Counted from the stretch's first letter, positions 4,908-32,700 are shown. The stretch is DNA of 42,126 nt from Candidatus Kuenenia sp. (GCA_038144795.1 JAYQOK010000002.1:6769-48894), one strand, 5' to 3'. Numbers and translations: made by a program. The notes: a model not told the origin generated them from the sequence alone.

Positions 4908-6646
4908 CAATGCTTTTCCGGTGGATCCGCCGGAGTTTCTGCTTTGGCGTTTGTAGAAACCGGCTGCGTCACACCGATGTTGTCGTGAATGAGTACGTCC
5001 TTGCACTTGGGGTGTACGGTGACCTCGCGGCCACCCCCGCTCACAACATTGTCTCGCACAATGATGCCCGTGCCATTGGGGGCAAACGTGATGGCCGGTC
5101 CACACTCCGGGCCGGTGGCGAAAACGTTCCCAGTCACGACAACGGCCCCATACTTCCCGTCCGCCTCATGCAGTGTGAAATACAGTTCCGGATACGACTC
5201 ATAGTCCCCGGTGATGAAGGTCTTGCGGCCACGCTTCGGGTCACGCTCACACTTCGTGGTGTTGTTGACAAAGACGTTGTTCGAGAGCACGAGGTTTTTC
5301 GGTTGGTTGATCCAACTGCCCCGGCCACCACCCCGAAACGTGTTTCCACTAATGGTCACGTCGGCACATGACTTCTCCACACTCATCACCCGTGAACCAT
5401 TGGTTCCGTCCACCGTGTTGCCAATGATTGTCGCATTCTTGCAGTACTCAGCCAGGAAAAACGCCCCCATCCGGGAGCCGAGGATCTGGTTGCCGTCGAA
5501 CACGACGTTTTGGCACTTCTGGATGTGCATGGTGTCTCCACGGGCGCTGAGCCTGCAGCCACTCACCCGAACATCCTTGCAGGCGACAAGGTCGATCGCC
5601 CCCTTACCAGGTCCGCTCCCACGTGGCGAGTACAGGGCGAGGAAAGCGCGAAAGTGATCGTGGATGATCTTCGCCTGCGGTCCAAAACTGCCATCGAACA
5701 CGATCGGCCTGCCGCCGGGCTTTTCGGCAACCTTGATGTACTCCCTTTCACTCTCGACGATGAAGTACTGTCTCCCCCGAATCACGTTCGTCGGTAACGT
5801 GTCTCCGAAGAAGACCAGAGCGTCTTTTGGCTCCGCAGTTCTAGCAACCGGCAGTGGTTGGGTGGGGTTATCAAATCTCACTCGGTTGCCCTTGTCATCG
5901 CACCGAATCCCGGACCGGATCAGGGAGGACGTGAAGTACCGTGCCGCTAGTGCCCGCTCGTGATCAGTGTGCTCCTCCGGCCAGACCGTGATCTGCCACA
6001 GGTAGCCGTAGTCCCACATAAACTTGCCGGAGTCGAGAAGTGTGCAGTCCTCCAGCGTCACGTCGGTGGCGTAGTTGGTAACCTCACGCTCTGATCCCGG
6101 CTTGGCAACGCCAACGACGGTCACGACCGCACCCGCCATCCCAGCCGACGTGATATCACGAAAGCGGAGGCGGCGGGTCGTCCCACCGCGAGTGGTGGTG
6201 ATCAGGATCACCCGCGTGTTGGCATTCGGCTCCCAAGTATTGAATTCGATCGTCGGGTCAAAGCACCGTCCGCGGAAGTCGCCTCCTCGCCACGAGAAGT
6301 CGCAGATGTCCTCGCCGGTAAAGAGTACGATGCGGCTCCCGTCGCCGAGTGTTTCCGGGAGCGTGAACACCGCGCCATCAGCAGCGACGTGCGTGTTACT
6401 GGCAAGCGTGATCGGCTTTTCTCCTGCCAAGAAGTATCGCCCGGGTGGAATGATGACATGCCCGCCACCCGCAGCCTCAACGTCGGCAAACAGTTTGCCG
6501 AACGCCTCCGTTGCATCATCTCTCCCATTCAATGGAGGCTTGTAGGACGCAAGCGAAAATGTTTTTATCTCGCGTGATGCACACACAGCCCCCGTTTCAA
6601 CCAACACCAACACACACACGCAGATATTGAGAGTCAGACCACGCAC
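4907..6646 (-). CDS. Secreted right-handed parallel beta-helix protein (pectate lyase superfamily-like)
   Basis: Signal-like N-terminus; DDATEAF...GGGHVIIPPGRY motif; repeated Asn-ladder coils (FDGNQI, IIGNTV, ISGNTF, LSNNVF, VTGNVF, VRDNVV). GTG at 6646 follows GGAGG; the ORF track starts at 6661. Confidence 0.8.
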   Translation of the reverse strand: MRGLTLNICVCVLVLVETGAVCASREIKTFSLASYKPPLNGRDDATEAFGKLFADVEAAGGGHVIIPPGRYFLAGEKPITLASNTHVAADGAVFTLPETLGDGSRIVLFTGEDICDFSWRGGDFRGRCFDPTIEFNTWEPNANTRVILITTTRGGTTRRLRFRDITSAGMAGAVVTVVGVAKPGSEREVTNYATDVTLEDCTLLDSGKFMWDYGYLWQITVWPEEHTDHERALAARYFTSSLIRSGIRCDDKGNRVRFDNPTQPLPVARTAEPKDALVFFGDTLPTNVIRGRQYFIVESEREYIKVAEKPGGRPIVFDGSFGPQAKIIHDHFRAFLALYSPRGSGPGKGAIDLVACKDVRVSGCRLSARGDTMHIQKCQNVVFDGNQILGSRMGAFFLAEYCKNATIIGNTVDGTNGSRVMSVEKSCADVTISGNTFRGGGRGSWINQPKNLVLSNNVFVNNTTKCERDPKRGRKTFITGDYESYPELYFTLHEADGKYGAVVVTGNVFATGPECGPAITFAPNGTGIIVRDNVVSGGGREVTVHPKCKDVLIHDNIGVTQPVSTNAKAETPADPPEKH

Positions 6647-8175: not shown

Positions 8176-8931
8176 TCACAGACATCGCTCAGACCGTTGT
8201 CGGCTCGTGGGGTCGCTCTCCACGGACTCGATCCGACCGTCTTCCATCGACGCGATCCGGTCGGCGAAGGAATACACTCGCGAGTCATGCGTGACAACGA
8301 TCACTGCCCGGTCAGGCTGCACGGCCACCTGCTGTATCAACTCCATCGTGATTCGGCCGTTGGCGGCATCGAGGGCGCTGGTCGGCTCGTCGCAGACCAA
8401 GAGCCGCGGCTCATGCACGAGCGCCCGGGCGATGGCCACCCGTTGCTGCTGGCCACCGGAAAGTTCACTCGGCAGGTTTGCCAGGCGATCCCCCAGCCCC
8501 AGCCGCTCCAGAATGTCGGCTGCCACTTCGACGGCATGGGCCCGCCGCCAGCCGGCGATGAGCAGGGGCACCGCGGCATTCTCCACGGCCGTGAGCGATG
8601 GCAGCAGGTTGTAGGCCTGGAAGATGAAGCCGACGTTCTCCCGACGAAACCGCACCTTACGGCCGTTGCTCATGCCCACAAGGTCGTGGCCGAGCACCTG
8701 CACGTTGCCAGCGGTCGCCTCGAGCGTTCCGGCCACAATGGAGACGAGCGTCGTCTTGCCGCAGCCGCTGGGGCCGACGAGCATCAACATCTCGCCATAG
8801 GGCACGTCGAGATCGACGCCCCGCAACGCCCGCGTGAGCGAGCCGCCGCTGCCGAATTCCTTCGTGACGCCGCGGACCCGCACGGCCATGTCGTCGGCAG
8901 GGCGGTTGTCATCCACATGTCGTGCGGCCAT
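8176..8931 (-). CDS. ABC transporter ATP-binding protein (LolD/DevA/MacB-NBD type)
   Basis: GPSGCGKTT, LSGGQQQRVAIARAL, DEPT, VTHD. Confidence 0.93.
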   Translation of the reverse strand: MAARHVDDNRPADDMAVRVRGVTKEFGSGGSLTRALRGVDLDVPYGEMLMLVGPSGCGKTTLVSIVAGTLEATAGNVQVLGHDLVGMSNGRKVRFRRENVGFIFQAYNLLPSLTAVENAAVPLLIAGWRRAHAVEVAADILERLGLGDRLANLPSELSGGQQQRVAIARALVHEPRLLVCDEPTSALDAANGRITMELIQQVAVQPDRAVIVVTHDSRVYSFADRIASMEDGRIESVESDPTSRQRSERCL

Positions 8932-22172: not shown

Positions 22173-22202
22173 ATAATATACGTCGGTATAGGTGCCAGTC
22201 AA
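22173..22202 (-). promoter_or_regulatory. Candidate sigma70-type promoter (TTGACT-N16-TATATT or N18-TATTAT)
   Basis: Minus strand reads TTGACTGGCACCTATACCGACGTATATTAT, an AT-rich patch in GC-rich DNA, ending 7 nt before the ATG at 22165. Confidence 0.5.
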
Positions 22203-23737
22203 CGGACCCTGCCGTGCGTCGCTGCCCCGCCGACGAAGTCGCGCAGGTCGGCCCGCCGCAGCCTCCACCAGTACGACGCGGAAAATCCAGGCCAGAGCGC
22301 CGAAAGTCGGCCGGCCGGATCGCGATACCAGGTGGTACAGGGCCGTCGCCACGACGAGGCGGTCGAGCCCGCGCCAGCGGTGGAGCCCCACACAGTCCGC
22401 AGAAACCGCCGCTGGATCCATTTATTGAACTGATGCTGCACATCGGGCCGCACATCGATCTCGGGAAGCCGGCCGGCTTCGAGCAGGTCGAGGCAGGAGC
22501 TTACGTAGCGGACCTGCGCCTCGAGCATAAACACGATCGAGTTGTGGCCGAGGCCGGAGTTGGGGCCCATCAGCAGGAAGAGGTTCGGGTAGCCCGCCAC
22601 CATGAGGCCGTTGTAGGCCTCGGGGCCTGTGGCCCAGTCGTCGGCGAGTCGGCGGCCGCCCCGGCCACGGATGTCGATCTCGGTAGCCGGATTGAACGTG
22701 CGGAAGCCGGTGGCCAGCACGAGCACGTCCGCCGGTCGCTCCACGCAATCCGCCGTCACGATTCCCTGCGGGCGGATCGCGATGATCTTCTCGGTGGTCA
22801 CATCCACATTGTCACGGGCGAGCGCCGGGTAGTAATCGTCGGAGAGGAGCACCCGCTTGCAGCCCATCGTGTACTGCGGCGTGACCGCAGCGCGGAGGGC
22901 GGGATCCTTGATATGCCGGGCCAGATGAGCCAGCGACTCCCGCTGCCAGCTCCCCAGGAGCCATGGCCAGAGCGTGAAGCCGATCGCGATTGTCTCCGAC
23001 TCCATATAGAGGAGTGTCCGCCACAGCCGCTGCATGCCGGGGACATGGTCGAAGGCCCATCGCGCCCAGCGGGAGACCTTCCGGTCGTGCCGCGGCAAGA
23101 CCCACGGGGGCGTCCGCTGGCAGACCAGCAGCCGCTTCACCTGCGGGGCGATCGCAGGAATGATCTGGATTGCACTGGCGCCCGTGCCGATCACGGCCAC
23201 CCGTTTGCCGGCGAAGTCGACGTCGTGCCGCCAGCGGGCGGAGTGAAAGGCCGGGCCCGCAAACGTCTCAAGCCCCGGCAGTTCCGGAATCCGCGGCACA
23301 TGCAGGCCGCCCACGCCGGCCACGATGATGTCGGCCGTGAACGTGCGGCCGTCGGTGGCGGTGAGCTGCCAGCGTCGCTCGGCGTTGTCCCAGTCGAGCC
23401 GCATAATCTCCGTGTTGAACCGGATGCGGTCGGTGAGGCTGTGCTTGGCGGTCACCCGCTCCAGATAGCGAAGGATCTCCGGCTGCGGGGCGTAGGTTCG
23501 CGACCAGCCCGAATCCTGTTCGAATGAAAAGGAGTAGAGGTGGGAGGCGATATCGCAGGCACAACCCGGGTAGGTATTTTCCCGCCAGGTGCCCCCCACT
23601 CCGGCTGCCTTTTCGAAGATCGTGAATTCGCTGCGGCCGGTCTCGAGCAGTTGAATCGCCATCCCCAAGCCGCCGAAGCCGGCGCCGAGAATGGCAACGC
23701 GGGTGTGGTCGGTCGCTGAGGGCAGCAGGCTCGCCAT
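22199..23737 (-). CDS. Flavin-containing monooxygenase (Baeyer-Villiger/CzcO type)
   Basis: GAGFGG, GGTWRENTYPG, fingerprint FAGPAFHSARW, GTGASA, QRTPPW, ATGF. Confidence 0.92.
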   Translation of the reverse strand: MASLLPSATDHTRVAILGAGFGGLGMAIQLLETGRSEFTIFEKAAGVGGTWRENTYPGCACDIASHLYSFSFEQDSGWSRTYAPQPEILRYLERVTAKHSLTDRIRFNTEIMRLDWDNAERRWQLTATDGRTFTADIIVAGVGGLHVPRIPELPGLETFAGPAFHSARWRHDVDFAGKRVAVIGTGASAIQIIPAIAPQVKRLLVCQRTPPWVLPRHDRKVSRWARWAFDHVPGMQRLWRTLLYMESETIAIGFTLWPWLLGSWQRESLAHLARHIKDPALRAAVTPQYTMGCKRVLLSDDYYPALARDNVDVTTEKIIAIRPQGIVTADCVERPADVLVLATGFRTFNPATEIDIRGRGGRRLADDWATGPEAYNGLMVAGYPNLFLLMGPNSGLGHNSIVFMLEAQVRYVSSCLDLLEAGRLPEIDVRPDVQHQFNKWIQRRFLRTVWGSTAGAGSTASSWRRPCTTWYRDPAGRLSALWPGFSASYWWRLRRADLRDFVGGAATHGRVR

Positions 23738-23781
23738 GCTCCGAGGCTACCGTGCCGCCGCCGTCTCCGGAAACCGATCCT
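23726..23781. repeat. Left copy of 56-bp direct repeat (carB 3' end plus monooxygenase start)
   Basis: CAGGCTCGCCATGCTCCGAGGCTACCGTGCCGCCGCCGTCTCCGGAAACCGATCCT; 54/56 identical to 29668-29723; minus strand encodes [10 protein letters not shown]-stop, then MASL. Confidence 0.95.
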
Positions 23782-23802
23782 CCTTCGCGAGCCTGATCCG
23801 CG

Positions 23803-24570
23803 ATGAATTTGCTGCGCACTTTGTGCCCACCGCGCAAGCCAAAACGACTCCCCTCCGTCCTCAGTCATGAGGAAGTGACCGATCTGCTTGCCAGACTGAT
23901 TGGCCAGCCGGCAATAATTGCAACGCTTCTCTATGGCGCGGGCCTACGGCTCATGGAGGCGCTTCGCTTGCGAGTCAAGGATCTGGATTTCGAGCGCCGA
24001 GAGATCGTCATCCGGGAGGCGAAGGGCAACAAGGATCGAGTCAGCGTGATTCCCCAGTGCCTGGTACCTGAACTGGCGACCTCATTGAGGAAATGGCAGA
24101 CCGAGCATGCCCGCAGAGTCGAACTTGGCAGCGGCCGTGTGCAGCTACCGACAGCACTGGCCCGTAAATATCCTGCCTTGGAGACCGCCTGGGGGTGGCA
24201 GTGGGTATTCCCGGCAGAGCGAGACTACCGCGACCGCGTCGATGGCAGACACTACCGTCATCACATCCATGAAAGTACCGTCCAGCGAGCGGTAACCAAA
24301 GCTGCCCGTGACGCCGGCATCGTGAAACGGGCAACCTGCCATACGCTTCGGCACTCTTTCGCCACGCACTTGTTGGAAGGCGGCTATGACATCCGTACCG
24401 TCCAGGAGTTGCTGGGGCACAACGACGTACGCACGACGATGATCTACGCCCATGTACTTAATCGTGGCGGCCCACTGATTCGGAGCCCGGCCGACGGCCT
24501 TCCGGGACCGGGATTATGCCGCCCTCCAGCAGCAGAACACGCACCTTCCCCGCCGCGACCGTGTCGCTAA
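23803..24570 (+). CDS. intI: Integron integrase, N-terminally truncated (255 aa)
   Basis: LLYGAGLRLME, KGNKDR, IntI-specific insert ALARKYP...WQWVFP, HTLRHSFATHLL, QELLGH, TTMIY. Begins near RLPSVLS, with an in-frame TGA at 23794-23796 upstream. Confidence 0.92.
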   Translation: MNLLRTLCPPRKPKRLPSVLSHEEVTDLLARLIGQPAIIATLLYGAGLRLMEALRLRVKDLDFERREIVIREAKGNKDRVSVIPQCLVPELATSLRKWQTEHARRVELGSGRVQLPTALARKYPALETAWGWQWVFPAERDYRDRVDGRHYRHHIHESTVQRAVTKAARDAGIVKRATCHTLRHSFATHLLEGGYDIRTVQELLGHNDVRTTMIYAHVLNRGGPLIRSPADGLPGPGLCRPPAAEHAPSPPRPCR

Positions 24571-24584
24571 CCCTAATCGCATGC

Positions 24585-24614
24585 TTGACTTGCCAATCCC
24601 CACACACCTAGGCT
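24585..24614 (+). promoter_or_regulatory. Candidate cassette promoter (TTGACT-N18-TAGGCT)
   Basis: Lies between the intI stop and the first core site, pointing into the array; motif match only. Confidence 0.35.
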
Positions 24615-24617
24615 TCC

Positions 24618-24674
24618 GGGGTTATGCCGACACAAGAATGTGTTTCTGTGGAACGAGAGAAATACAAGTTATCC
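24618..24674 (+). other. Putative attI recombination site; crossover G/TTATCC at 24668-24674
   Basis: GTTATCC is the exact reverse complement of the first cassette's inverse core GGATAAC (25097); no attC hairpin precedes it; a second core-like GTTATGC lies 47 bp upstream. Confidence 0.7.
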
Positions 24675-24705
24675 TTTCTCAACCATCACATCTCACAGCC
24701 ACAAT

Positions 24706-25038
24706 ATGACAACTGACCAAAACCAATCCAACCAACTTGCGAGCGCTCCATCAGCATCTCGACTCGTCAAAACGGCCAGTTGGCTCGGCACATGGGCCGT
24801 TATTTGCGCTGCGATCTTCGTTCTTCGGTTTCGCAAGATTTGGCTTCTCGTTGGAGAATCATGGATAGGCCTCTTGGTCGGCTACTTTGTACTGTGGCTT
24901 GGGGGGGCGTCGCTTTACTTCGCATTTTCACAACTTGACCGCATCAAGTCCGAAGGACTTAAGTTTGTCGCACAGATGCTTCTCTGTCTCCTCGTCACAG
25001 TCGTGATTGGCGGGGTAATCTTAGTCATCACCTTCTAA
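24706..25038 (+). CDS. Cassette 1: hypothetical membrane protein (about 3 TM)
   Basis: ATG at 24706 is the first start inside the cassette (24669-25191); three hydrophobic segments. Confidence 0.75.
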   Translation: MTTDQNQSNQLASAPSASRLVKTASWLGTWAVICAAIFVLRFRKIWLLVGESWIGLLVGYFVLWLGGASLYFAFSQLDRIKSEGLKFVAQMLLCLLVTVVIGGVILVITF

Positions 25039-25096
25039 CCTCGCTTGTGAGCGCTTCATACATGGAGTGAATACACGTCGACAGGAAATCCGAAAC

Positions 25097-25197
25097 GGAT
25101 AACCACGCGATGCAACGGAGCGGAAATGGCGTTCCGATTTTTTCCTTAAATCAAGATCACTCGCGCCATTTCCGCCCGCTGATCGCCATCGTTCGCC
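25097..25197 (+). other. attC site 1 (101 bp)
   Basis: GGATAAC...GCGAT[G]CAACGG[A]GCGGAAATGGCG / CGCCATTTCCGC-CCGCTG-ATCGC...GTTCGCC; imperfect palindrome with two unpaired bases. Confidence 0.92.
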
Positions 25198-25249
25198 GGA
25201 CAATTCGGAAAACAGAGTTCGGCCTATCTCTACCGCGACCAAAAAAGCG

Positions 25250-25564
25250 ATGACAACGAAACCAATAACCGACCCCTGCCAGGAGACCATCCGGTCATTT
25301 GCGAAACGCTCTGATCGGACCGTATTGCTGATCACATTGCTGTTCGCCATGGGCGGAGCCTTCATAGATATCGCTCTTGGCGTTAGTGACGCATTGTTGG
25401 GCAGTCGTCCGGCGGTGTTCTGGGGGATTTGGGTGCCGCTTTGCTTCATTACCATCCCGCCACTCCATTACCTTTGCCGCAAAGTGTGGATCTTGCAAGA
25501 GCGCGTCCAGGCCCTTGAGTCGCAATTAAAGACCGAAGAGTGCCGTGAGCAGTGCAACGCCTAG
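25250..25564 (+). CDS. Cassette 2: hypothetical membrane protein (2 TM plus C-terminal coiled coil)
   Basis: Single ORF filling cassette 25192-25658; LQERVQALESQLK heptad pattern. Confidence 0.75.
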   Translation: MTTKPITDPCQETIRSFAKRSDRTVLLITLLFAMGGAFIDIALGVSDALLGSRPAVFWGIWVPLCFITIPPLHYLCRKVWILQERVQALESQLKTEECREQCNA

Positions 25565-25576
25565 CAGTCGCGTCGC

Positions 25577-25664
25577 GGCGAACAACGCGATGCAGCGGAC
25601 TCGCAATAAAATTGGGCGGTGTGGATCGCGTATGGCTGCGAGCCGCTGATCGCCCGCGTTAGCC
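25577..25664 (+). other. attC site 2 (88 bp)
   Basis: GGCGAAC...GCGAT[G]CAGCGG[A]CTCGCA / TGCGAG-CCGCTG-ATCGC...GTTAGCC. Confidence 0.93.
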
Positions 25665-25704
25665 GAAACCCGACCATCTCTCGCAAAGCAAAGGGTTGTC
25701 CCTC

Positions 25705-26007
25705 ATGAATGATCTGCTTCAACTTGCCTGTCTCATTAGTGTGGCTGCCCTACCACTTGTTGTGCTGGGCCTTCGCGCAGCCCGCCCAAAGTTCATGCCA
25801 TGGTGGGCCGTCTTCTTGCTTGTGATTGGGCTGGGGTGGGGGCTGGTCTTACTCGCCGCGATGCTGAACGAGACCAAGAATGGCGGTGCAGGCCATGTTT
25901 TCGCCCTGTTTTTTGGTTGGGCCATTGCGCTCATTTGGCTTGCCCCATGGCTTCTTGTGTATGCAGTCATCCAACTCTTTCGCCGCCGTGCGATTCCCCG
26001 TGCCTAA
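25705..26007 (+). CDS. Cassette 3: hypothetical membrane protein (about 3 TM)
   Basis: Stop TAA lies inside the attC3 inverse core GCCTAAC, a classic cassette arrangement; start ATG 25705 or TTG 25696. Confidence 0.8.
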   Translation: MNDLLQLACLISVAALPLVVLGLRAARPKFMPWWAVFLLVIGLGWGLVLLAAMLNETKNGGAGHVFALFFGWAIALIWLAPWLLVYAVIQLFRRRAIPRA

Positions 26008-26089
26008 CCACGCAATGCAGCGGACTCGCGATAAAATCAGTCCAGACGGAGAAGCCAAGGTCGCGAGCCGCTGATTGCTACCGTTCGGC
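26002..26089 (+). other. attC site 3 (88 bp)
   Basis: GCCTAAC...GCAAT[G]CAGCGG[A]CTCGCGA / TCGCGAG-CCGCTG-ATTGC...GTTCGGC. Confidence 0.93.
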
Positions 26090-26111
26090 AACAGGAAGGA
26101 AATGAGGCCCC

Positions 26112-27188
26112 ATGCGGCTGACACCCATCGCGATAACCATCTTCGGCTGGCTGGCGATCGGCACCACTTTTTCAGGAGACGCGGGCGAGCCGCCGGGCTC
26201 ACCTGCTGCTGCCTCAGCACGTATATTCAACGCACTCGATTACGGCGCTGTGGGCGACGACAATACTGATAATACGGCGGCATTTTCGGCTTGCATCAAG
26301 GACGTGATCGAAGCGGGAGGCGGCCGCATGATGATCCCCGTCGGGGTCTATCGCGGCAGAATCGTCATTCCCGGAACCAAAGAGTGGATCACCGTGGAAA
26401 TCGTGGGCGAAAGTGAACCCACCCCGGTCTTCGGGACGATCGGCGCATTTCCGTTTCCGAAGAATGGCACGACAATTAAATGCGTGTCGGAATCAGGTCC
26501 GGCGGTCATCTCCGCAGCCAACGTCCCCGCCAAGTTGTATTCGCAGTTCTCAGGGATCAACGTGAGCCTGCGAAACCTGGACGTCCGCACGTATGACAAT
26601 CCTGGGATCGGCGGCATCAATCTGCTAAACGCGGCGCAATGCAAACTCGAGAACGTCTTCGTCAACACCAATCGCTACAACGTACAGGCGTCCAAGCCCA
26701 CCCGCGGCACGGTCGGCATTAGCACCCCAGCCTGCAACAATGCAGCCCTCACGATCCTACGCAATGTCGTCGTGACCGGATATCACACCGGTATCCTGGT
26801 GAACGAGCATACCGATGGCGATAACGTTACCGTGGCGTCCAACGTCAACGGGCTGGAGTTTGCCTTCGCCTATCACGCCTCCAGATTCGGCCGGGTCGGC
26901 GCGTATCGATGCAGCCGCTGCCTCACGGTAACCGGCAAGCACGGTTTCTGCATCGAGCAGCTCAATGTAGAGATTGCCGGCCCCGGGCAGACCAGCAAAG
27001 ACAATGCGTGGCAAACCACTGAGTTCAACATTTACGCTCCCGAGAATCTCGGCACTGGTGACCTCAACTGGTGGGTTGTCGAGGGCAATGTTGGAGCGGT
27101 GGAGAAGTTCACGAAGAGTGGCGGAGAGCATGTCCGTACCCGACGGATCGGATCGCATCCAATTCCAGCAGAAAACTCGGCGAAATGA
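26112..27188 (+). CDS. Cassette 4: secreted pectate-lyase-superfamily beta-helix protein
   Basis: Signal peptide; FNALDYGAVGDDNTDNTAAF...GGGRMMIPVGVY motif; beta-helix coils (LRNLDV, LENVFV, LRNVVV). Confidence 0.85.
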   Translation: MRLTPIAITIFGWLAIGTTFSGDAGEPPGSPAAASARIFNALDYGAVGDDNTDNTAAFSACIKDVIEAGGGRMMIPVGVYRGRIVIPGTKEWITVEIVGESEPTPVFGTIGAFPFPKNGTTIKCVSESGPAVISAANVPAKLYSQFSGINVSLRNLDVRTYDNPGIGGINLLNAAQCKLENVFVNTNRYNVQASKPTRGTVGISTPACNNAALTILRNVVVTGYHTGILVNEHTDGDNVTVASNVNGLEFAFAYHASRFGRVGAYRCSRCLTVTGKHGFCIEQLNVEIAGPGQTSKDNAWQTTEFNIYAPENLGTGDLNWWVVEGNVGAVEKFTKSGGEHVRTRRIGSHPIPAENSAK

Positions 27189-27234
27189 TGATCCCCCCAA
27201 GCGATAGTCGGCACGGGACGCCGTATCAGGGCAT

Positions 27235-27323
27235 GCCGAACCAAGCCTTACAGCCGACTCGCGAGAGCGTCTTGCGGTATGGATGCCGTGTTGGCTGCGA
27301 GCGGCTGAAGGCGGTCGTTATCC
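27235..27323 (+). other. attC site 4 (89 bp)
   Basis: GCCGAAC...GCCTT[A]CAGCCG[A]CTCGC / GCGAG-CGGCTG-AAGGC...GTTATCC. Confidence 0.92.
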
Positions 27324-27327
27324 ACTC

Positions 27328-27882
27328 ATGAAAAGAATCGCTAATTCGCTCATTGCTGGTTGCATCGTGCTGCTCATCGCCGGATGTTCTCAGCGCACCA
27401 ACATTGGCTCGCAAACTACACGGACGGTCGACACGTACGACATAGATTTATTTGAAAAACTTGACGGAGAACTGAAAGCACTAAGCCGTGGAGTATCCTT
27501 GCTTCTCGCGATGAACCGGGAATCTGACCGATTCACAACTCTGACGGACTTTCTTGCAACGATTGACGCAGGCCAACTGCGCTGTGAAATCAGGGAACTG
27601 GAGTATTACCCTTTAGTTCTCTACATATATCACACATCTTACTACCTTCCCGATGGTTCGTATCGTCCAACGCTAGATCGCAAGTCAGCGCTCGTTCTTG
27701 TTGACGCGAAGACCCATCGCGTGATCGATTTCACATTTGAAACTGGCTATCGAACTGACGCTATAAGCAGCCAAGAACCGTACTACGAGGGATCATGGGA
27801 CCGTAAAGACGGGACAACTGTTACGTACAGGCTCCTACCCTCAGGTTTTGAGGTGTCGAAGGCAGAAGAGCAGGGCAAGTAA
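27328..27882 (+). CDS. Cassette 5: putative lipoprotein
   Basis: ATG 4 nt after the core site: MKRIANSLIAGCIVLLIAGC (lipobox LIAGC); the ORF-track start at 27283 falls inside attC4. Confidence 0.8.
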   Translation: MKRIANSLIAGCIVLLIAGCSQRTNIGSQTTRTVDTYDIDLFEKLDGELKALSRGVSLLLAMNRESDRFTTLTDFLATIDAGQLRCEIRELEYYPLVLYIYHTSYYLPDGSYRPTLDRKSALVLVDAKTHRVIDFTFETGYRTDAISSQEPYYEGSWDRKDGTTVTYRLLPSGFEVSKAEEQGK

Positions 27883-27892
27883 TCAACTACGC

Positions 27893-27983
27893 AGATAACA
27901 ATCGCATGCACCGGAGTTGCCGACGGTGCGGTATTCACATGGGAACATCGCTGGCGGCAACCCGGTGATGCGTGGCGTTATAC
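27893..27983 (+). other. attC site 5 (91 bp)
   Basis: AGATAAC...CGCAT[G]CACCGG[A]GTTGCCG / CGGCAAC-CCGGTG-ATGCG...GTTATAC. Confidence 0.93.
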
Positions 27984-28020
27984 TGCATCGAATGGCCGCG
28001 ATGGCGGAGAGTACATCTAC

Positions 28021-28407
28021 GTGACGGATAGCTCCAAACCTGAGTCGACTCTCGATTGGCTGGTCGGAGTACCGCTTCTCCTCCTAATCGGTGCGGTTGC
28101 AGTCGTGGTGGTCTCGCCGATACTGCTCGCGCGTGCGTTCATTCGGACCATCTGCCCCAGGTGTCACATCCCCGTGGCGAGGAAAATCCTTGCAACGACC
28201 TTCGATCGAGAAAACGTTAAATTCAACGTCGATCACTACCGTGTCTCGTGTGCCTGCCGTTGGTGCGGCAGTCGGTGGGACTACGAAAAGTTGCTCGGAG
28301 CCGACTTGCGCAGAGTTGACTTCCATGAAGGCGGTACACTCCGGGGCCCTCCGGGGCTGTCCTCGGGTAGCACCTTCAGTTCAATCCGAAAGCCCAGCGA
28401 TTCCTGA
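28021..28407 (+). CDS. Cassette 6: membrane-anchored putative zinc-ribbon protein
   Basis: One TM followed by CPRC and CACRWC cysteine clusters. Confidence 0.7.
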   Translation: MTDSSKPESTLDWLVGVPLLLLIGAVAVVVVSPILLARAFIRTICPRCHIPVARKILATTFDRENVKFNVDHYRVSCACRWCGSRWDYEKLLGADLRRVDFHEGGTLRGPPGLSSGSTFSSIRKPSDS

Positions 28408-28418
28408 CACCAATCGCA

Positions 28419-28510
28419 GTATCACAATCGAATGCACCGGATTTGCCACCGGTGCCGATTCCTGAAGTTGAGTGTCGCTGGCGGCAACCCGGTGATGCGT
28501 GTCGTTAGGA
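28419..28510 (+). other. attC site 6 (92 bp), degenerate inverse core
   Basis: GTATCAC (GTATAAC expected)...CGAAT[G]CACCGG[A]TTTGCC / GGCAAC-CCGGTG-ATGCG...GTTAGGA; right arm nearly identical to attC5. Confidence 0.88.
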
Positions 28511-28522
28511 GCACCCTGCAAC

Positions 28523-28777
28523 ATGCCCGCGATGAAGTTTCTGCTCTGGCTAACGTTATCCGGCTTTGCGGTTGCGGTCGGCGGCCTTGTTCATCGCGCA
28601 CTCGCGGTAGGCGTGCCGTATCAAGATCCCACTCCTGCCCAAGCCGCTGCGGAGCGGGTGTCCGTCGCTATCAGCGACTTGGCAATGGGTAGCGGTATAG
28701 TCATGTTGCTCGTGGGCCTCGTTGGGATGGCATTCATCGGCGTAGGCCGTCTGGTGAAATTGAAAGCCGGCTCCTAA
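28523..28777 (+). CDS. Cassette 7: small 2-TM membrane protein
   Basis: Start at ATG 28523 or 28532; two hydrophobic helices around GVPYQDPTP; stop TAA inside the attC7 inverse core TCCTAAC. Confidence 0.78.
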   Translation: MPAMKFLLWLTLSGFAVAVGGLVHRALAVGVPYQDPTPAQAAAERVSVAISDLAMGSGIVMLLVGLVGMAFIGVGRLVKLKAGS

Positions 28778-28861
28778 CCATACGATGCAAAGGACTCGCG
28801 GGTATCGTCATGGGTGATTGCTGCCCCGAGGGCCGCGAGCCTTTGATCTTTGCCGTTCGGC
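28772..28861 (+). other. attC site 7 (90 bp)
   Basis: TCCTAAC...GAT[G]CAAAGG[A]CTCGCGG / CCGCGAG-CCTTTG-ATC...GTTCGGC. Confidence 0.9.
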
Positions 28862-28934
28862 CGGATCAGTTTAGACGTTGCGTCATGCTGAAAGCAATTG
28901 TTTCAAAACGCCTAACCCTCTGAAAGTGTATCTC

Positions 28935-29363
28935 ATGAACAGTCTATTTTCGTTACATCTTGGCTGCCGCCTCGCGGTTTTGGTTGTTCTGGTTTTTAAT
29001 GTTGGATGCGGAACTCAGAGGAACTCCCGAACTACTTCGACGACGCCTACTTCGGAGGATGACATTCCAGCAGCATCCTTTATGGAGCGAATTGATGACC
29101 ACGATAGAAAACATCTCCTTGAGTGGTTTACTGCTGAAAAACCGATGGACGAGATTTACAGGTGGTTTGACACAGAGTTGCCAAAGGCTGGATGGCAACG
29201 CATTTCTGATGCGGAAGATCACCCAATTACCAGGACACTCCAGTTTCAAAAGGGTGACAGGAAATGCAAAATAGAAATCTCTGGTTTTATGACCGGCGGC
29301 ACCATGTCAAACCCTCAAGTTGATTCAAAGTTTTTTATTGAAATATGGCCAAACCTAAAGTAA
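28935..29363 (+). CDS. Cassette 8: putative lipoprotein
   Basis: MNSLFSLHLGCRLAVLVVLVFNVGC (lipobox-like), Ser/Thr linker, then YRWFDTELPKAGW; AT-rich. The ORF track starts at TTG 28878. Confidence 0.72.
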   Translation: MNSLFSLHLGCRLAVLVVLVFNVGCGTQRNSRTTSTTPTSEDDIPAASFMERIDDHDRKHLLEWFTAEKPMDEIYRWFDTELPKAGWQRISDAEDHPITRTLQFQKGDRKCKIEISGFMTGGTMSNPQVDSKFFIEIWPNLK

Positions 29364-29443
29364 CATGCAGTGTTTACCATTAGTCGACTGTTACGTGAAC
29401 GACGCCGATCGATGTCCTTCTGAACTAAATCAGAAGCAATCAG

Positions 29444-29534
29444 ACATAGCCAAGCGGTGAACCGGAACCGCCGATCACGCGGATTTCTGAAGTCAGAATT
29501 CTTGGCGGCGGCCCGGTTACCGCCGCCGTTATGT
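29444..29534 (+). other. attC site 8 (91 bp), degenerate inverse core
   Basis: ACATAGC (AAC replaced by AGC)...GCGGT[G]AACCGG[A]ACCGCCG / CGGCGGC-CCGGTT-ACCGC...GTTATGT. Confidence 0.85.
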
Positions 29535-29667
29535 GGCGGAGAGCGACAACGGCGCTGGCGGGTGAGCGATCACCTGAATCAACGCTTGGCCACGTTGTTC
29601 GGGCAACCGCCTACCTCGCGTTCATTTTCCCTTTCCTCCTCATGGGTGACGGGAGAGTGGAGGAGGA

Positions 29668-29723
29668 CAGGCTCGCCATGCCCCGAGGCTACCGTGCCGC
29701 CGCCGTCTCCGGAAACCGGTCCT
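29668..29723. repeat. Right copy of 56-bp direct repeat (contains the functional carB stop)
   Basis: CAGGCTCGCCATGCCCCGAGGCTACCGTGCCGCCGCCGTCTCCGGAAACCGGTCCT; two mismatches versus 23726-23781. Confidence 0.95.
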
Positions 29724-32700
29724 GGATCGCCTGCACTGAGAGCAGGTCGTTCCGCATCGCCTCCATAGCCCGCACACAGGCCTCGGCGGCCGGCAGTGTC
29801 GTGATGCAAGGCACGCCATACTGCACGCTCGCCGCCCGAATCCGCCCCTCGTCGGTACGGGCCCCCTTCCCCCGCGGCGTATTGAAGATGAGGTGCACGC
29901 GGCCGTCGATCAGATAGTCGAGCAGGTTGGGATGCCCTTCCTGGAGCTTCCGCATCGGCTCGACCGGAATCCCCGCCGCCGTAAGGGCGCGGGCCGTGCC
30001 TTCCGTCGCGATCAGTTCGAAACCGAGCGCCACCAGCCTCCCCGCCAGTCCCACCATCGATTCCTTGGCCTGCGGGCTGGCAACGCTCAAAAAGATCCGC
30101 CCCTCGCGGGGCAGGAGGATGCCGGCGGCGATCTGACTCTTGGCAAAAGCGATGCTGAACTGCTCGCTCACCCCCATCACCTCGCCGGTGCTCCGCATCT
30201 CCGGGCCCAGGGCGATATCGACGCCGGCAAACTTCACAAACGGAAACACGCTCTCCTTCACACTGCGATGGGCCGGCACCGGATCGGCGTCGATTCCCTG
30301 CTCGGCCAGACCGAGCCCCGCCATCACCTTCACCGCCACCTTCGCCACCGGCAGGCCCGTCGCCTTGGCGACGAAAGGCACGGTGCGACTGGCACGCGGA
30401 TTGACCTCGATCACGTAAAGCGTGGGCGTGCCGTCTTCCTTCTTGACGGCAAACTGCACGTTCATCAGGCCGATCACGCCAAGGCTCTTCGCCATCTCGG
30501 TAGCGGCGGCCTTGATCTCGTCGACCACTTCGGCCGAGAGGCTGTGCGGCGGGATGCAGCAGGCTGAGTCGCCGGAATGTACCCCCGCTTCTTCAATGTG
30601 TTCCATCACGCCGGCCACGATCACGTCGCGGCCGTCACTGATACAATCGACATCGACTTCGATCGCATCCTCGAGAAACCGGTCGATCAAGACCGGCTGC
30701 CCCTGAGCCACCGCAAAGGCCTCTGCCACATACCGCTCGAACTGCACCGTGTCGTAGCAGATCTCCATCGCCCGGCCACCAAGCACGAAGCTCGGCCGCA
30801 CGAGGCTCGGGAATCCGATCCGGGCCACCTCCCGCCGGGCCTGCTCGAGCGTGCGGGCGATACCGCTGGCCGGCTGCCTAAGGCCGAGGCGGTCGAGCAG
30901 CTCGCGAAACTTCTCGCGATCCTCCGCCGTCTCGATCGTGTCGACGGTCGTGCCGATGATCGGCAGGCCGGCGGCATGGAGGGCTCGAGCAAGGTTGAGT
31001 GGGGTCTGGCCCCCGAGTTGCACGATCACGCCGTCGGGCTGGATGCGATCGGCGATATTGAGCACATCCTCGCAGGTGAGCGGCTCGAAGAAGAGCATGT
31101 CGCTCGTGTCATAGTCGGTGCTTACCGTCTCAGGATTGGAGTTGACCATCACGCTCTCGATCCCCATCTCGCGAAGCGCGAAGCTGGCATGGCAGCAGCA
31201 GTAGTCAAACTCGATCCCTTGCCCGATCCTGTTGGGCCCACCCCCGAGGATCATCACCCGCTTGCGGCCCGGCTCCTTGGGCCGCGTTTCGTCCTCGTCT
31301 TCCCAGGTCGAATAGTAGTAAGGCGTCTGGGCCTCGAACTCGGCAGCGCAGGTATCGACCGACTTGTAGGTGGCGACCACACCCCGTCGCTTCCTCTCCT
31401 CGCGAACATCCATCTCCGAACTGCCGAGCATCACAGCCAGTTGCCTGTCAGAGAAGCCATATTGCTTGGCCTGCCGCAGGAGCCCCGTGTCGATCGCCGC
31501 CAGCGACCCGACCTCGCGAAGCAGGCTCTCCAGTTCCACGATCTGCAGCAACTGGTCGAGAAACCAGGGGTCGATCGCCGTCAACGAATGTAGTTCATCG
31601 ACCGTCATCCCCGCCTTCAGGGCATACCGCAGATACCACACGCGATCTGGGTCGGGCGTAGACACGCGGGCACGGATATCGTCAGGCGATGGCTCCGCCG
31701 CCGTACCCCATAGATCCTTGCCGTCGCAGCCGAATCCGAACGAGCCCACCTCCAGGCCGCGGAGCGCCTTCTGAAAGGCCTCCTTAAAAGTCCGCCCGAT
31801 CGCCATCGTCTCCCCTACGCTCTTCATCTGCGTGGTGAGCCGGCTGTCGGCCTCGGGAAACTTCTCGAAGGCAAACCGCGGCACCTTGACGACGACATAG
31901 TCGATCGACGGCTCAAAGCAGGCCATCGTCTTCCGAGTGATGTCATTGGCCAGTTCATGTAGACGCCAACCAACAGCAAGCTTGGCGGCTATTTTTGCGA
32001 TCGGAAACCCGGTGGCCTTACTGGCCAAAGCCGAAGAGCGACTCACGCGGGGGTTCATCTCGATCACGATCATCCGGCCGGTCCGTGGATCAACGGCGAA
32101 TTGGATATTGGAGCCGCCGGTCGCTACGCCGATCGCACGAATGACGGCAAAACTGGCATCCCGCATCCGCTGATACTGCTTGTCGGTGAGCGTCATTGCC
32201 GGGGCGACAGTAATTGAGTCGCCGGTGTGCACGCCACAGGGATCGAAATTTTCGATGGAGCAGATGACGACGGCATTGTCGTCGGCATCCCGCATCACCT
32301 CCATCTCGTATTCCTTCCAACCGAGAATCGATTCCTCGACGAGTACTTCGCTGACTGGCGAAAGGTCGAGGCCCCGCTGGACCTTGTGGTCGAATTCCTC
32401 ACGGTTGTAAGCAACGCCTGATCCGGAGCCACCAAGCGTGAAGCTCGGACGGATGACAGCAGGCAGGCCGATCTCGGCGAGCACCTCACGAGCCTCGGGC
32501 AGACTTTTCACAATCTGGCCACGGCAGGTGTCGAGACCGATCTTCTGCATCGTTTCCTTAAAGATCTCCCGATCCTCACCCCGCTTGATCGCGTCTGCCC
32601 TGGCGCCGATCATCTCCACGCCGTGCTTGGCGAGGATGCCGCGGCTGTCAAGCTCCATCGCGAGGTTGAGCGCTGTCTGGCCGCCCAGCGTCGGCAGCAC

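Follow-up and report, generated by a model that had tools for sequence, protein, structure and literature searches.

The locus

The window analysed here is a 42,126-nucleotide (nt) stretch of DNA from Candidatus Kuenenia sp. (GCA_038144795.1, JAYQOK010000002.1:6769-48894), with positions counted from its first letter. Between 23.8 and 29.7 kb it carries an integron, that is, an integrase gene (intI), a predicted attI site whose G/TT crossover lies at the integrase-proximal end, and an array of gene cassettes ending in attC sites, all read on the same strand. The junction G residues are at 24668, 25191, 25658, 26083, 27317, 27977, 28504, 28855 and 29528, each followed by TT, and all nine lie where a preliminary description of this DNA had placed the boundaries. 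Between the junctions there are eight + strand open reading frames (ORFs), each followed by an imperfect palindrome of 87-101 nt. A repeat finder separated the palindrome arms into two sequence types, type A comprising attC1-4 and attC7, and type B comprising attC5, attC6 and attC8. The features of the array are as follows.

23803..24570, + strand: intI ORF, 5'-truncated, 255 amino acids (aa); 310.8 bits with profile TIGR02249.
24571..24670, + strand: predicted attI region, crossover between G24668 and T24669; GAACnAGAGAAATACAAGTT block, compared with contig G010:C167.
24669..25191, + strand: cassette 1; ORF 24706-25038, 110 aa, multi-pass membrane protein; attC1 25097-25197.
25192..25658, + strand: cassette 2; ORF 25250-25564, 104 aa, membrane protein; attC2 25577-25664.
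25659..26083, + strand: cassette 3; ORF 25705-26007, 100 aa, three hydrophobic segments; attC3 26002-26089.
26084..27317, + strand: cassette 4; ORF 26112-27188, 358 aa, pectate-lyase-like; attC4 27235-27323.
27318..27977, + strand: cassette 5; ORF 27328-27882, 184 aa, lipoprotein-like (LIAGC); attC5 27893-27983, type B.
27978..28504, + strand: cassette 6; ORF 28021-28407, 128 aa; attC6 28419-28510, type B.
28505..28855, + strand: cassette 7; ORF 28523-28777, 84 aa, membrane protein; attC7 28772-28861.
28856..29528, + strand: cassette 8; ORF 28935-29363, 142 aa, hydrophobic N-terminus; attC8 29444-29534, type B.

Pairing of cassette leaders with their own inverse cores

The outer boxes of any palindrome pair by construction, so the informative comparison is between a cassette's own leader and the R' box found in situ. 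Each R'' box was therefore examined for whether it pairs better with the leader of its own cassette than with the R' of its own site. For the eight cassettes, own-cassette pairing was observed at 27 of 32 variable positions, compared with 18 of 32 in situ. When the eight leaders were permuted, only 16 of the 40320 arrangements reached 27, while the in-situ score of 18 was reached by 11830. Cassettes 1-7 taken together score 26 of 28, and two of 5040 permutations do as well. Pairing of a leader with its own R'' is the hallmark of circular intermediates, and it is seen in seven of the eight cassettes.

The individual pairs are as reported in the preliminary description. Exact pairs are formed in cassette 1 (GTTATCC with GGATAAC at 25097), cassette 2 (GTTCGCC/GGCGAAC), cassette 4 (GTTCGGC/GCCGAAC) and cassette 7, where the pairing of GTTAGGAGC with GCTCCTAAC is exact over 9 nt. 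One position fails to match in each of three others, cassette 3 (GTTAGCC with GCCTAAC), cassette 5 (GTTATCC with AGATAAC) and cassette 6, in which the R'' is GTATCAC and the single mismatch sits in the AAC triplet. In cassettes 3 and 7 the stop codon of the ORF is within R''.

As a benchmark, six arrays from four other genomes of the genus were used, giving 44 attC sites and 38 cassettes with both ends. Own pairing was found at 142 of 152 positions and in-situ pairing at 92 of 152; 29 cassettes paired at 4/4 positions, eight at 3/4 and one at 2/4. The own-core rule is thus general in the lineage. The test costs little, distinguishes real cassette junctions from mere palindromes and draws attention to rearranged cassettes, for example cassette 8.

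Covariance models and structure of the attC sites

Two covariance models were used, R1 derived from the window's own eight sites and R2 from 44 sites that lie on six contigs belonging to four other genomes. R1 gave eight + strand matches of 60.6-86.1 bits and no more than 18 bits on the minus strand, and nothing else in the 42-kb window fell below an expectation value (E) of 1.9. R2 recovered the same eight intervals at 36.8-84.5 bits, with no further match in the window below E = 0.2 (the next + strand match had E = 0.41). The scores with R1 and R2, respectively, were 60.6 and 53.5 bits for attC1, 86.1 and 80.8 for attC2, 83.5 and 84.5 for attC3, and 79.6 and 52.3 for attC8; attC6 is the weakest site, with 73.1 bits and 36.8 bits, the latter being the lowest R2 score of the eight. 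In the whole 3.74-Mb assembly R1 found nine matches, namely those of the window plus one at the end of contig C16. Applied to 80 loci with integrase relatives in other genomes (959 kb), it found 67 matches, nearly all on one strand per locus, in series and beside intI. Rfam 15 gave no match on 23000-30500 at E up to 1; to our knowledge Rfam has no attC family.

Bottom strands were folded as single-stranded DNA, and the z-scores against dinucleotide shuffles were -1.7 to -4.6 (the ranges for attC3, attC7 and attC8 being 1-4 nt off the final ones). From the 3' end of the bottom strand the anatomy is an R box, a spacer of 3 nt facing 4 nt, 5 base pairs (bp), one bulged base, 6 bp, a second bulged base, a further stem and a variable loop. 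The preliminary description had stated that all eight hairpins have two unpaired bases six nucleotides apart. That arrangement is present in the minimum free energy (MFE) fold of six of the eight bottom strands (attC1-5 and attC7, the fold of attC2 being canonical), and all eight sites fit a single alignment register, but attC6 and attC8 do not show it at the MFE. For attC8 the canonical form appears in the centroid and in a constrained fold (-19.8 compared with -21.5 kcal/mol for the MFE). In the eight-site alignment 88.6% of cells are paired and 14 of 23 pairs have compensatory changes; on four of five measures none of 500 column shuffles reached the observed values, and sliding one arm by 1-3 columns reduced pairing to 29-45%. 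The inner helix is 95% paired while the R box in situ is only 75% paired, as it should be if the 3' half of the box is part of the following cassette.

Parts of PMC3518468, PMC2727003 and PMC3053210 define attC on resistance cassettes, with RYYYAAC/GTTRRRY boxes, T-N6-G bulges, an unpaired central spacer and a G/TT crossover. The sites of the window resemble the attC sites of resistance integrons (aadB, aadA7) in having an R box, an unpaired spacer, an L box, bulges six nt apart, a loop and the G/TT junction. They differ in the first bulge, which is C (T in attC4), and in their cores, which never read GTTRRRY. The R' box starts with GTT in 8/8 sites, and R'' ends with AAC in 6/8. The bulges are T-N6-C in 7/8 sites and T-N6-T in attC4, as opposed to the textbook T-N6-G, and the first bulge is C in 43 of the 44 sister sites. 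The departure of the cores from GTTRRRY is stronger than the preliminary description claimed: it had named several cores, and we find that none of the nine in the window fits, nor any of the 44 in the sister arrays. The cores read GTTC or GTTAT (42/44 sister cores read GTTC), GTT alone being conserved. We treat GTTRRRY as a consensus drawn from resistance cassettes and not as a defining feature of attC. Part of PMC3053210 reports that IntI1 excises T-N6-C sites efficiently, and part of PMC2727003 that G-to-C bulge changes have minor effects; on what is reported there, the C bulge falls within known tolerance. Both lineage traits, the C bulge and the GTTC/GTTAT cores, are within known tolerance. 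The exact boundaries, the attI motif and the attC grammar (GTTC/GTTAT cores, T-N6-C) could sharpen attC models for the lineage.

Integrase, attI site and orientation

The intI ORF scores 310.8 bits with TIGR02249, above the cut-off of 265, and none of 14 control genomes gave a match above that cut-off. An in-frame stop codon upstream closes the frame. Gene and cassettes share one strand, and 98 nt separate the intI stop codon from the first junction. On the class 1 model NF011946 it scores 228.4 bits against a cut-off of 435, and the flanks are carB and the monooxygenase gene with no transposon or plasmid context, so the locus is not a mobile class 1 integron. On that score IntI1, which the preliminary description named for an excision assay, is not the cognate enzyme.

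Contig G010:C167 carries a full-length IntI, scoring 423 bits over profile positions 1-315, which shares 75% identity with the window protein, solid homology beginning at 23833. Over the 20 nt up to and including GTT (GAACnAGAGAAATACAAGTT), 19 are identical in the two loci, and the likeness stops after GTT. A motif, (G/T)AGAA(A/T)TA...G/TT, closes the 3' flank of intI in five Planctomycetota loci, beyond which the sequences diverge. As the attI motif is conserved and the likeness ends at GTT, the first boundary is fixed independently of the core-pairing argument. The presence of intI and a conserved attI directly upstream bears out the description of the repeats as attC sites and of G/TT as the recombination junction.

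The nearest full-length relative with context is a locus of a Planctomycetia metagenome-assembled genome (L019, 61% identity), which has a 331-aa intI, then GTTAGGCC, paired with GGCCTAAC in the first attC, and then five R1 matches, all on the same strand. A quick IQ-TREE phylogeny was made with 84 IntI fragments (LG+G4, with only SH-aLRT, an approximate likelihood-ratio test, as support), 27 rows being labelled by the position and strand of R1 matches and 57 left unlabelled. All 11 same-strand loci, together with one of the 16 divergent loci, are in one half of the tree (support for the split 92%). The orientation label changes twice on the tree, and none of 500 shuffles was as low. The window IntI groups with that of G010:C167 (99% support) inside a six-row Planctomycetota clade (99% support); judged by these IntI relatives, the environmental genome that carries the locus probably belongs to the Planctomycetota. 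From the intact architecture of L019 and the grouping in the tree it follows that the same-strand layout is native and not a rearrangement.

We equate the half of the tree holding the same-strand loci with the published inverted-IntI group. Inverted IntIs are described in part of PMC8352920 as a sub-clade of the soil/freshwater IntI clade, and inverted (reverse) integrons are described for Treponema in parts of PMC3607928 and 10.1101/2020.05.09.085589. The window shares with these integrons an intI on the cassette strand, an attI behind the 3' end of intI, an IntI that groups with loci of the same orientation, and cassettes encoding mostly small proteins without known function. It differs in that intI has no N-terminal part, in having only eight cassettes, and in its position between two housekeeping-type genes with a duplication of about 52-63 nt on both sides. 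A further difference is that the genus has another IntI lineage (46-52% identical), whose layout is the classical divergent one and whose attC type is the same. The locus is a well-delimited same-strand chromosomal integron from a poorly sampled lineage.

The two IntI lineages coexist in the genus loci L143, L144, L145, L146 and L152. The window-like lineage is 68-75% identical and has same-strand cassettes where the layout is readable (L146, L152); the arrays of the other are divergent. At the full-length locus L143 (G010:C167) no attC was found, and in the genus loci with a readable layout every same-strand copy of intI is broken or truncated.

Junctions in other samples

Sequencing runs from other samples were also searched. 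Runs X1-X3 are from one study, contain 88-95% of the sampled words and may be the data from which the window came; X4 and X5 are from two other studies. Positions 1289-1954 of a 1978-nt X4 contig match 27316-27981 of the window, ie cassette 5 plus shared core letters, with three differences, and the rest of that contig is sequence that is not beside cassette 5 in the window, so the cassette lies in a foreign context. Of the other X4 contigs, one covers intI-attI and ends at 24670 (11 differences in 653 nt), and further ones have their start at 28504 or 29526 or their end at 28862. In both X4 and X5 a joint is seen in which the 5' half of an attC3-like site (up to 26035) passes into the sequence from 29526 on, one side of the joint being 31 nt long. 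Divergence of loose ends just after GTT occurs at 25661, 26085, 29530 and 29531. Contig ends or divergence at 24670, 27316, 27981, 28504, 28862 and 29526 mark six of the nine boundaries within 0-7 nt. The flank beginning TTATGT appears to be a fixed array end behind different last cassettes. The breaks in contigs from other studies, and the own-core rule in the 38 sister cassettes, both uphold the reading of the locus as a product of cassette capture.

Proposed assembly of the array and the points against it

Established integron biology suggests how such an array would be built. Each cassette would have entered as a circle, IntI cutting the folded bottom strand of attC between the G and TT of the top strand. 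The inserted cassette would have at its start the final six bases of its R' box and at its end the G of the same box, and, with those six bases in front, its leader would pair with its own R''. The resulting same-strand order would be intI, attI (G24668/TT) and eight promoterless cassettes, each consisting of one ORF and an attC. With the N-terminal part of the local IntI lost, present-day movement would presumably need IntI in trans.

Several observations weigh against this account. The preliminary description held that the core of each cassette matches its own inverse core, and that this pairing confirms the boundaries of all eight. That is correct for cassettes 1-7, whereas the eighth, for which the preliminary description listed no pair, is not confirmed by the own-core rule: the cassette 8 leader GTTCGGC agrees with the R'' ACATAGC (29444-29450, in the register set by the structure) at one of four variable positions, which is outside the range of all 38 benchmark cassettes (at least 2/4). 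In R'', attC6 reads CAC and attC8 reads AGC instead of AAC, and attC6 is non-canonical at the MFE, taking the canonical form only in a constrained fold (-10.8 compared with -15.4 kcal/mol). R1 was trained on the sites that it scores and the sites for R2 were gathered with R1, so the independence of R2 is partial. The intI ORF covers only positions 88-315 of the 315 in TIGR02249, about 87 N-terminal positions being gone, and no full-length intI was found in the assembly (one genome, 280 contigs, 89.5% complete), where the gene of the window is the sole TIGR02249 match above cut-off. Finally, the evidence from other samples consists of short k-mer contigs at 90% likeness, and two of three joints have only 31 nt on the shorter side.

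Cassette 8 looks chimeric. The R'' of attC8, ACATAGC, agrees 4/4 with the downstream core GTTATGT. With filters off, neither R1 nor R2 found a second attC hidden inside the cassette, and an R''-like GCCTAAC at about 28912-28918 was dropped as a candidate remnant, a 6/7 match being expected about 0.8 times by chance per 590 nt. The GC content of the cassette is 0.47. The site attC6 may be decaying.

With these points included, we hold with high confidence that the 23.8-29.7 kb region is a chromosomal integron in which intI, attI and eight cassettes that would have entered as circles are on the same strand. The locus is a genuine cassette array of eight cassettes, belonging to the same-strand (inverted-type) group and adjoined by a truncated integrase. 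It is an ordinary further example of a well-known system and leaves the understanding of integrons unchanged.

State of the integrase

Since the adjoining integrase is truncated, the evidence shows capture as a past event and not as present activity. The local integrase is very probably inactive. At the same locus in another genome of the genus (G004; L098, G004:C33, 1-745) the order is monooxygenase gene, repeat and a decayed intI remnant, which has stop codons, deletions and altered conserved motifs and extends further towards the N-terminus. The islands of the window genome (G000) and G004 probably share one origin, their junction alignments being weak. The G004:C33 contig ends about 280 nt past the remnant. 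Between 23832 and 23833 an X4 contig contains additional letters, consistent with a recent deletion in the lineage of the window.

Parts of Cury et al. 2016 (PMC4889954) report 279 attC clusters that have no integron-integrase (CALIN), of which 15 lie within 10 kb of an intI pseudogene. Like these, and like arrays beside intI pseudogenes, the window has a cluster of attC sites without a demonstrably functional integrase that is possibly mobilisable in trans. Its remnant differs in being a long open frame that is still above the integron-integrase cut-off, and a pipeline that relies on the C-terminal profile alone would probably report a complete integron here.

The alternative that survives best is that the array is still active, an intact but unassembled IntI elsewhere in the cell moving the cassettes in trans and the local gene being irrelevant. 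We regard this as a tentative possibility. The genus is rich in integrons of the same attC type, with R1 matches in 9 of 12 genomes and TIGR02249 matches above cut-off in 4 of 12; in the window genome a second attC adjoins a 45-aa IntI remnant where contig C16 ends; the completeness of the assembly is 89.5%; and relatives in other samples share intI-attI at 98% (the 11 differences in 653 nt given above) and have different cassette orders. Against it, no full-length intI was found in the 280 contigs of G000, the second G000 locus is likewise a remnant only, and the differences in arrays between samples could predate the truncation.

At that second locus (L013) the 45-aa C-terminal IntI remnant is at 1126-1263 on the minus strand, and a type-A attC, cut by the contig end, is at 1495-1570 on the plus strand. 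The attC faces the remnant from the opposite strand, which is the classical divergent layout.

A more far-reaching proposal would be that the truncated IntI is a selected, catalytic-domain-only protein acting on the array, by itself or in concert with a full-length IntI, and that the island reached the 3' end of carB by microhomology-type insertion. Scored per position, the open intI frame does match the family profile about as closely as an intact relative (310.8 bits over 228 positions, compared with 423 over 315 for the full-length G010 protein), the ratio of non-synonymous to synonymous change against the decayed G004 copy is 0.40, and there is a possible short microhomology of the CGG-AAAC-G type at the junction. 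If true, this would be a route of integron relocation without a transposon, but we think it unlikely.

Taken by itself, the idea that the 255-aa catalytic-domain-only IntI is functional, as a recombinase or in another role, and under selection is more doubtful still. The profile score is again in its favour, the ORF is open, and the motifs LRL, KGNKD, HTLRHSFATHLL and MIYAHV, probably of the catalytic type, are visible in the translation. The ratio of non-synonymous to synonymous substitution rates (dN/dS) is 0.12 against G010 (231 codons) and 0.40 against the G004 remnant, which has stops, and the terminal branch of the window protein in the tree (0.18) is no longer than that of G010 (0.21). 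However, the synonymous rate (dS) against G010 is saturated at 1.5 and only 78 codons enter the comparison with G004. The N-terminal domain is gone (some 87 positions of the profile), and tyrosine recombinases need this domain to clamp DNA. The extra letters in X4 at 23832/23833 also fit a recent deletion in G000 and not long-term maintenance.

The island and its flanks

The integron forms an island of 5.9 kb (about 23789-29667) between carB and the flavin-monooxygenase gene, with a GC content of 0.46-0.59 compared with 0.60-0.71 in the flanks. Its borders are as follows.

23726..23788: left copy of the flanking direct repeat, 63 nt, 92% identical to 29668-29730.
29529..29667, + strand: end-of-array flank, TTATGT plus about 133 nt without recognised feature.
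29668..29730: right copy of the flanking direct repeat; true carB 3' end, then an orphan copy of the monooxygenase start.

The repeat (23726-23788 and 29668-29730) is about 52-63 nt long, 92% identical and spaced by 5942, and comprises the carB 3' end, a spacer of 9 nt and the 12 nt that open the monooxygenase gene. The left copy stands ahead of the genuine monooxygenase gene (22199-23737, minus strand), and the right one contains the authentic carB 3' end (stop codon 29689-29691, minus strand; carB domains identified by profile search). In five genomes of the genus carB directly abuts the monooxygenase gene, giving the empty site. In G005 (L116, G005:C322), and by similarity in G007 (L117), a different insert of 3.2 kb is present at the same spot, encoding in G005 an ABC-F-type ATPase and an unassigned ORF and flanked by a 55-nt duplication that is 98% identical (5596-5650 and 8773-8827). 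Site-specific integration at a fixed core is an unlikely source of the duplication, because that in G005 has other boundaries. This intergenic position looks like a hot spot for insertions. Around the monooxygenase gene of relatives, 10 loci scanned with R1 yielded no attC, and the end-of-array flank (29529..29667) had no match in 11 other genomes of the genus.

The genome is a metagenome bin of 280 contigs, the island is lower in GC than its flanks and it is bounded by a repeat, all of which could point to an assembly chimera in which foreign integron DNA was joined at the short repeat. Low GC is usual for integron cassettes, though, and the repeat copies, being only 92% identical, are not one exact k-mer held in common. 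The same junction of monooxygenase gene, repeat and intI remnant is present in G004, and a contig of X4, a run from a different study, extends from 29526 across the flank and into the repeat as far as 29697. A chimera is therefore highly improbable. We give practically no credence to the weakest alternative, that the repeats are not attC but intergenic palindromes resembling repetitive extragenic palindromic elements or miniature inverted-repeat transposable elements, with core pairing arising from symmetry: they are imperfect palindromes of 87-101 nt between ORFs, in two repeated sequence types, but under symmetry the R' of its own site should be the best partner of R'', whereas the previous junction is favoured both here (27 against 18 of 32) and in the sister arrays (142 against 92 of 152), the sites are on one strand only and beside intI, the 67 R1 matches in the 80 IntI loci of other genomes are likewise arrayed next to intI, and the 3.74-Mb genome has just nine matches.

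Proteins encoded by the cassettes

Cassette proteins were read from their translations and a hydropathy scan. Small membrane proteins are encoded by cassettes 1, 2, 3 and 7, and the cassette 6 protein has one hydrophobic segment plus a CxxC...CxxC pattern. Of the eight proteins, only that of cassette 4 was matched in Pfam and NCBIfam (PF12708, and two weak NCBIfam matches below cut-off), PADLOC matched none, and no resistance or defence gene was recognised among the eight cassettes. A sigma-70 promoter scan of 23700-29750 gave one site compared with 2.8 expected, which is not informative on a cassette promoter. The cassette 4 protein has a hydrophobic N-terminus and a pectate-lyase-like beta-helix (PF12708 at 4.1e-11). 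Homologues of its gene, with 70-81% DNA identity, are on other contigs of G010, G001 and G008. The closest of these, on G010:C30 (L155, 81%), has no recognisable attC downstream and starts at a GTTCG core behind an attC-like arm.

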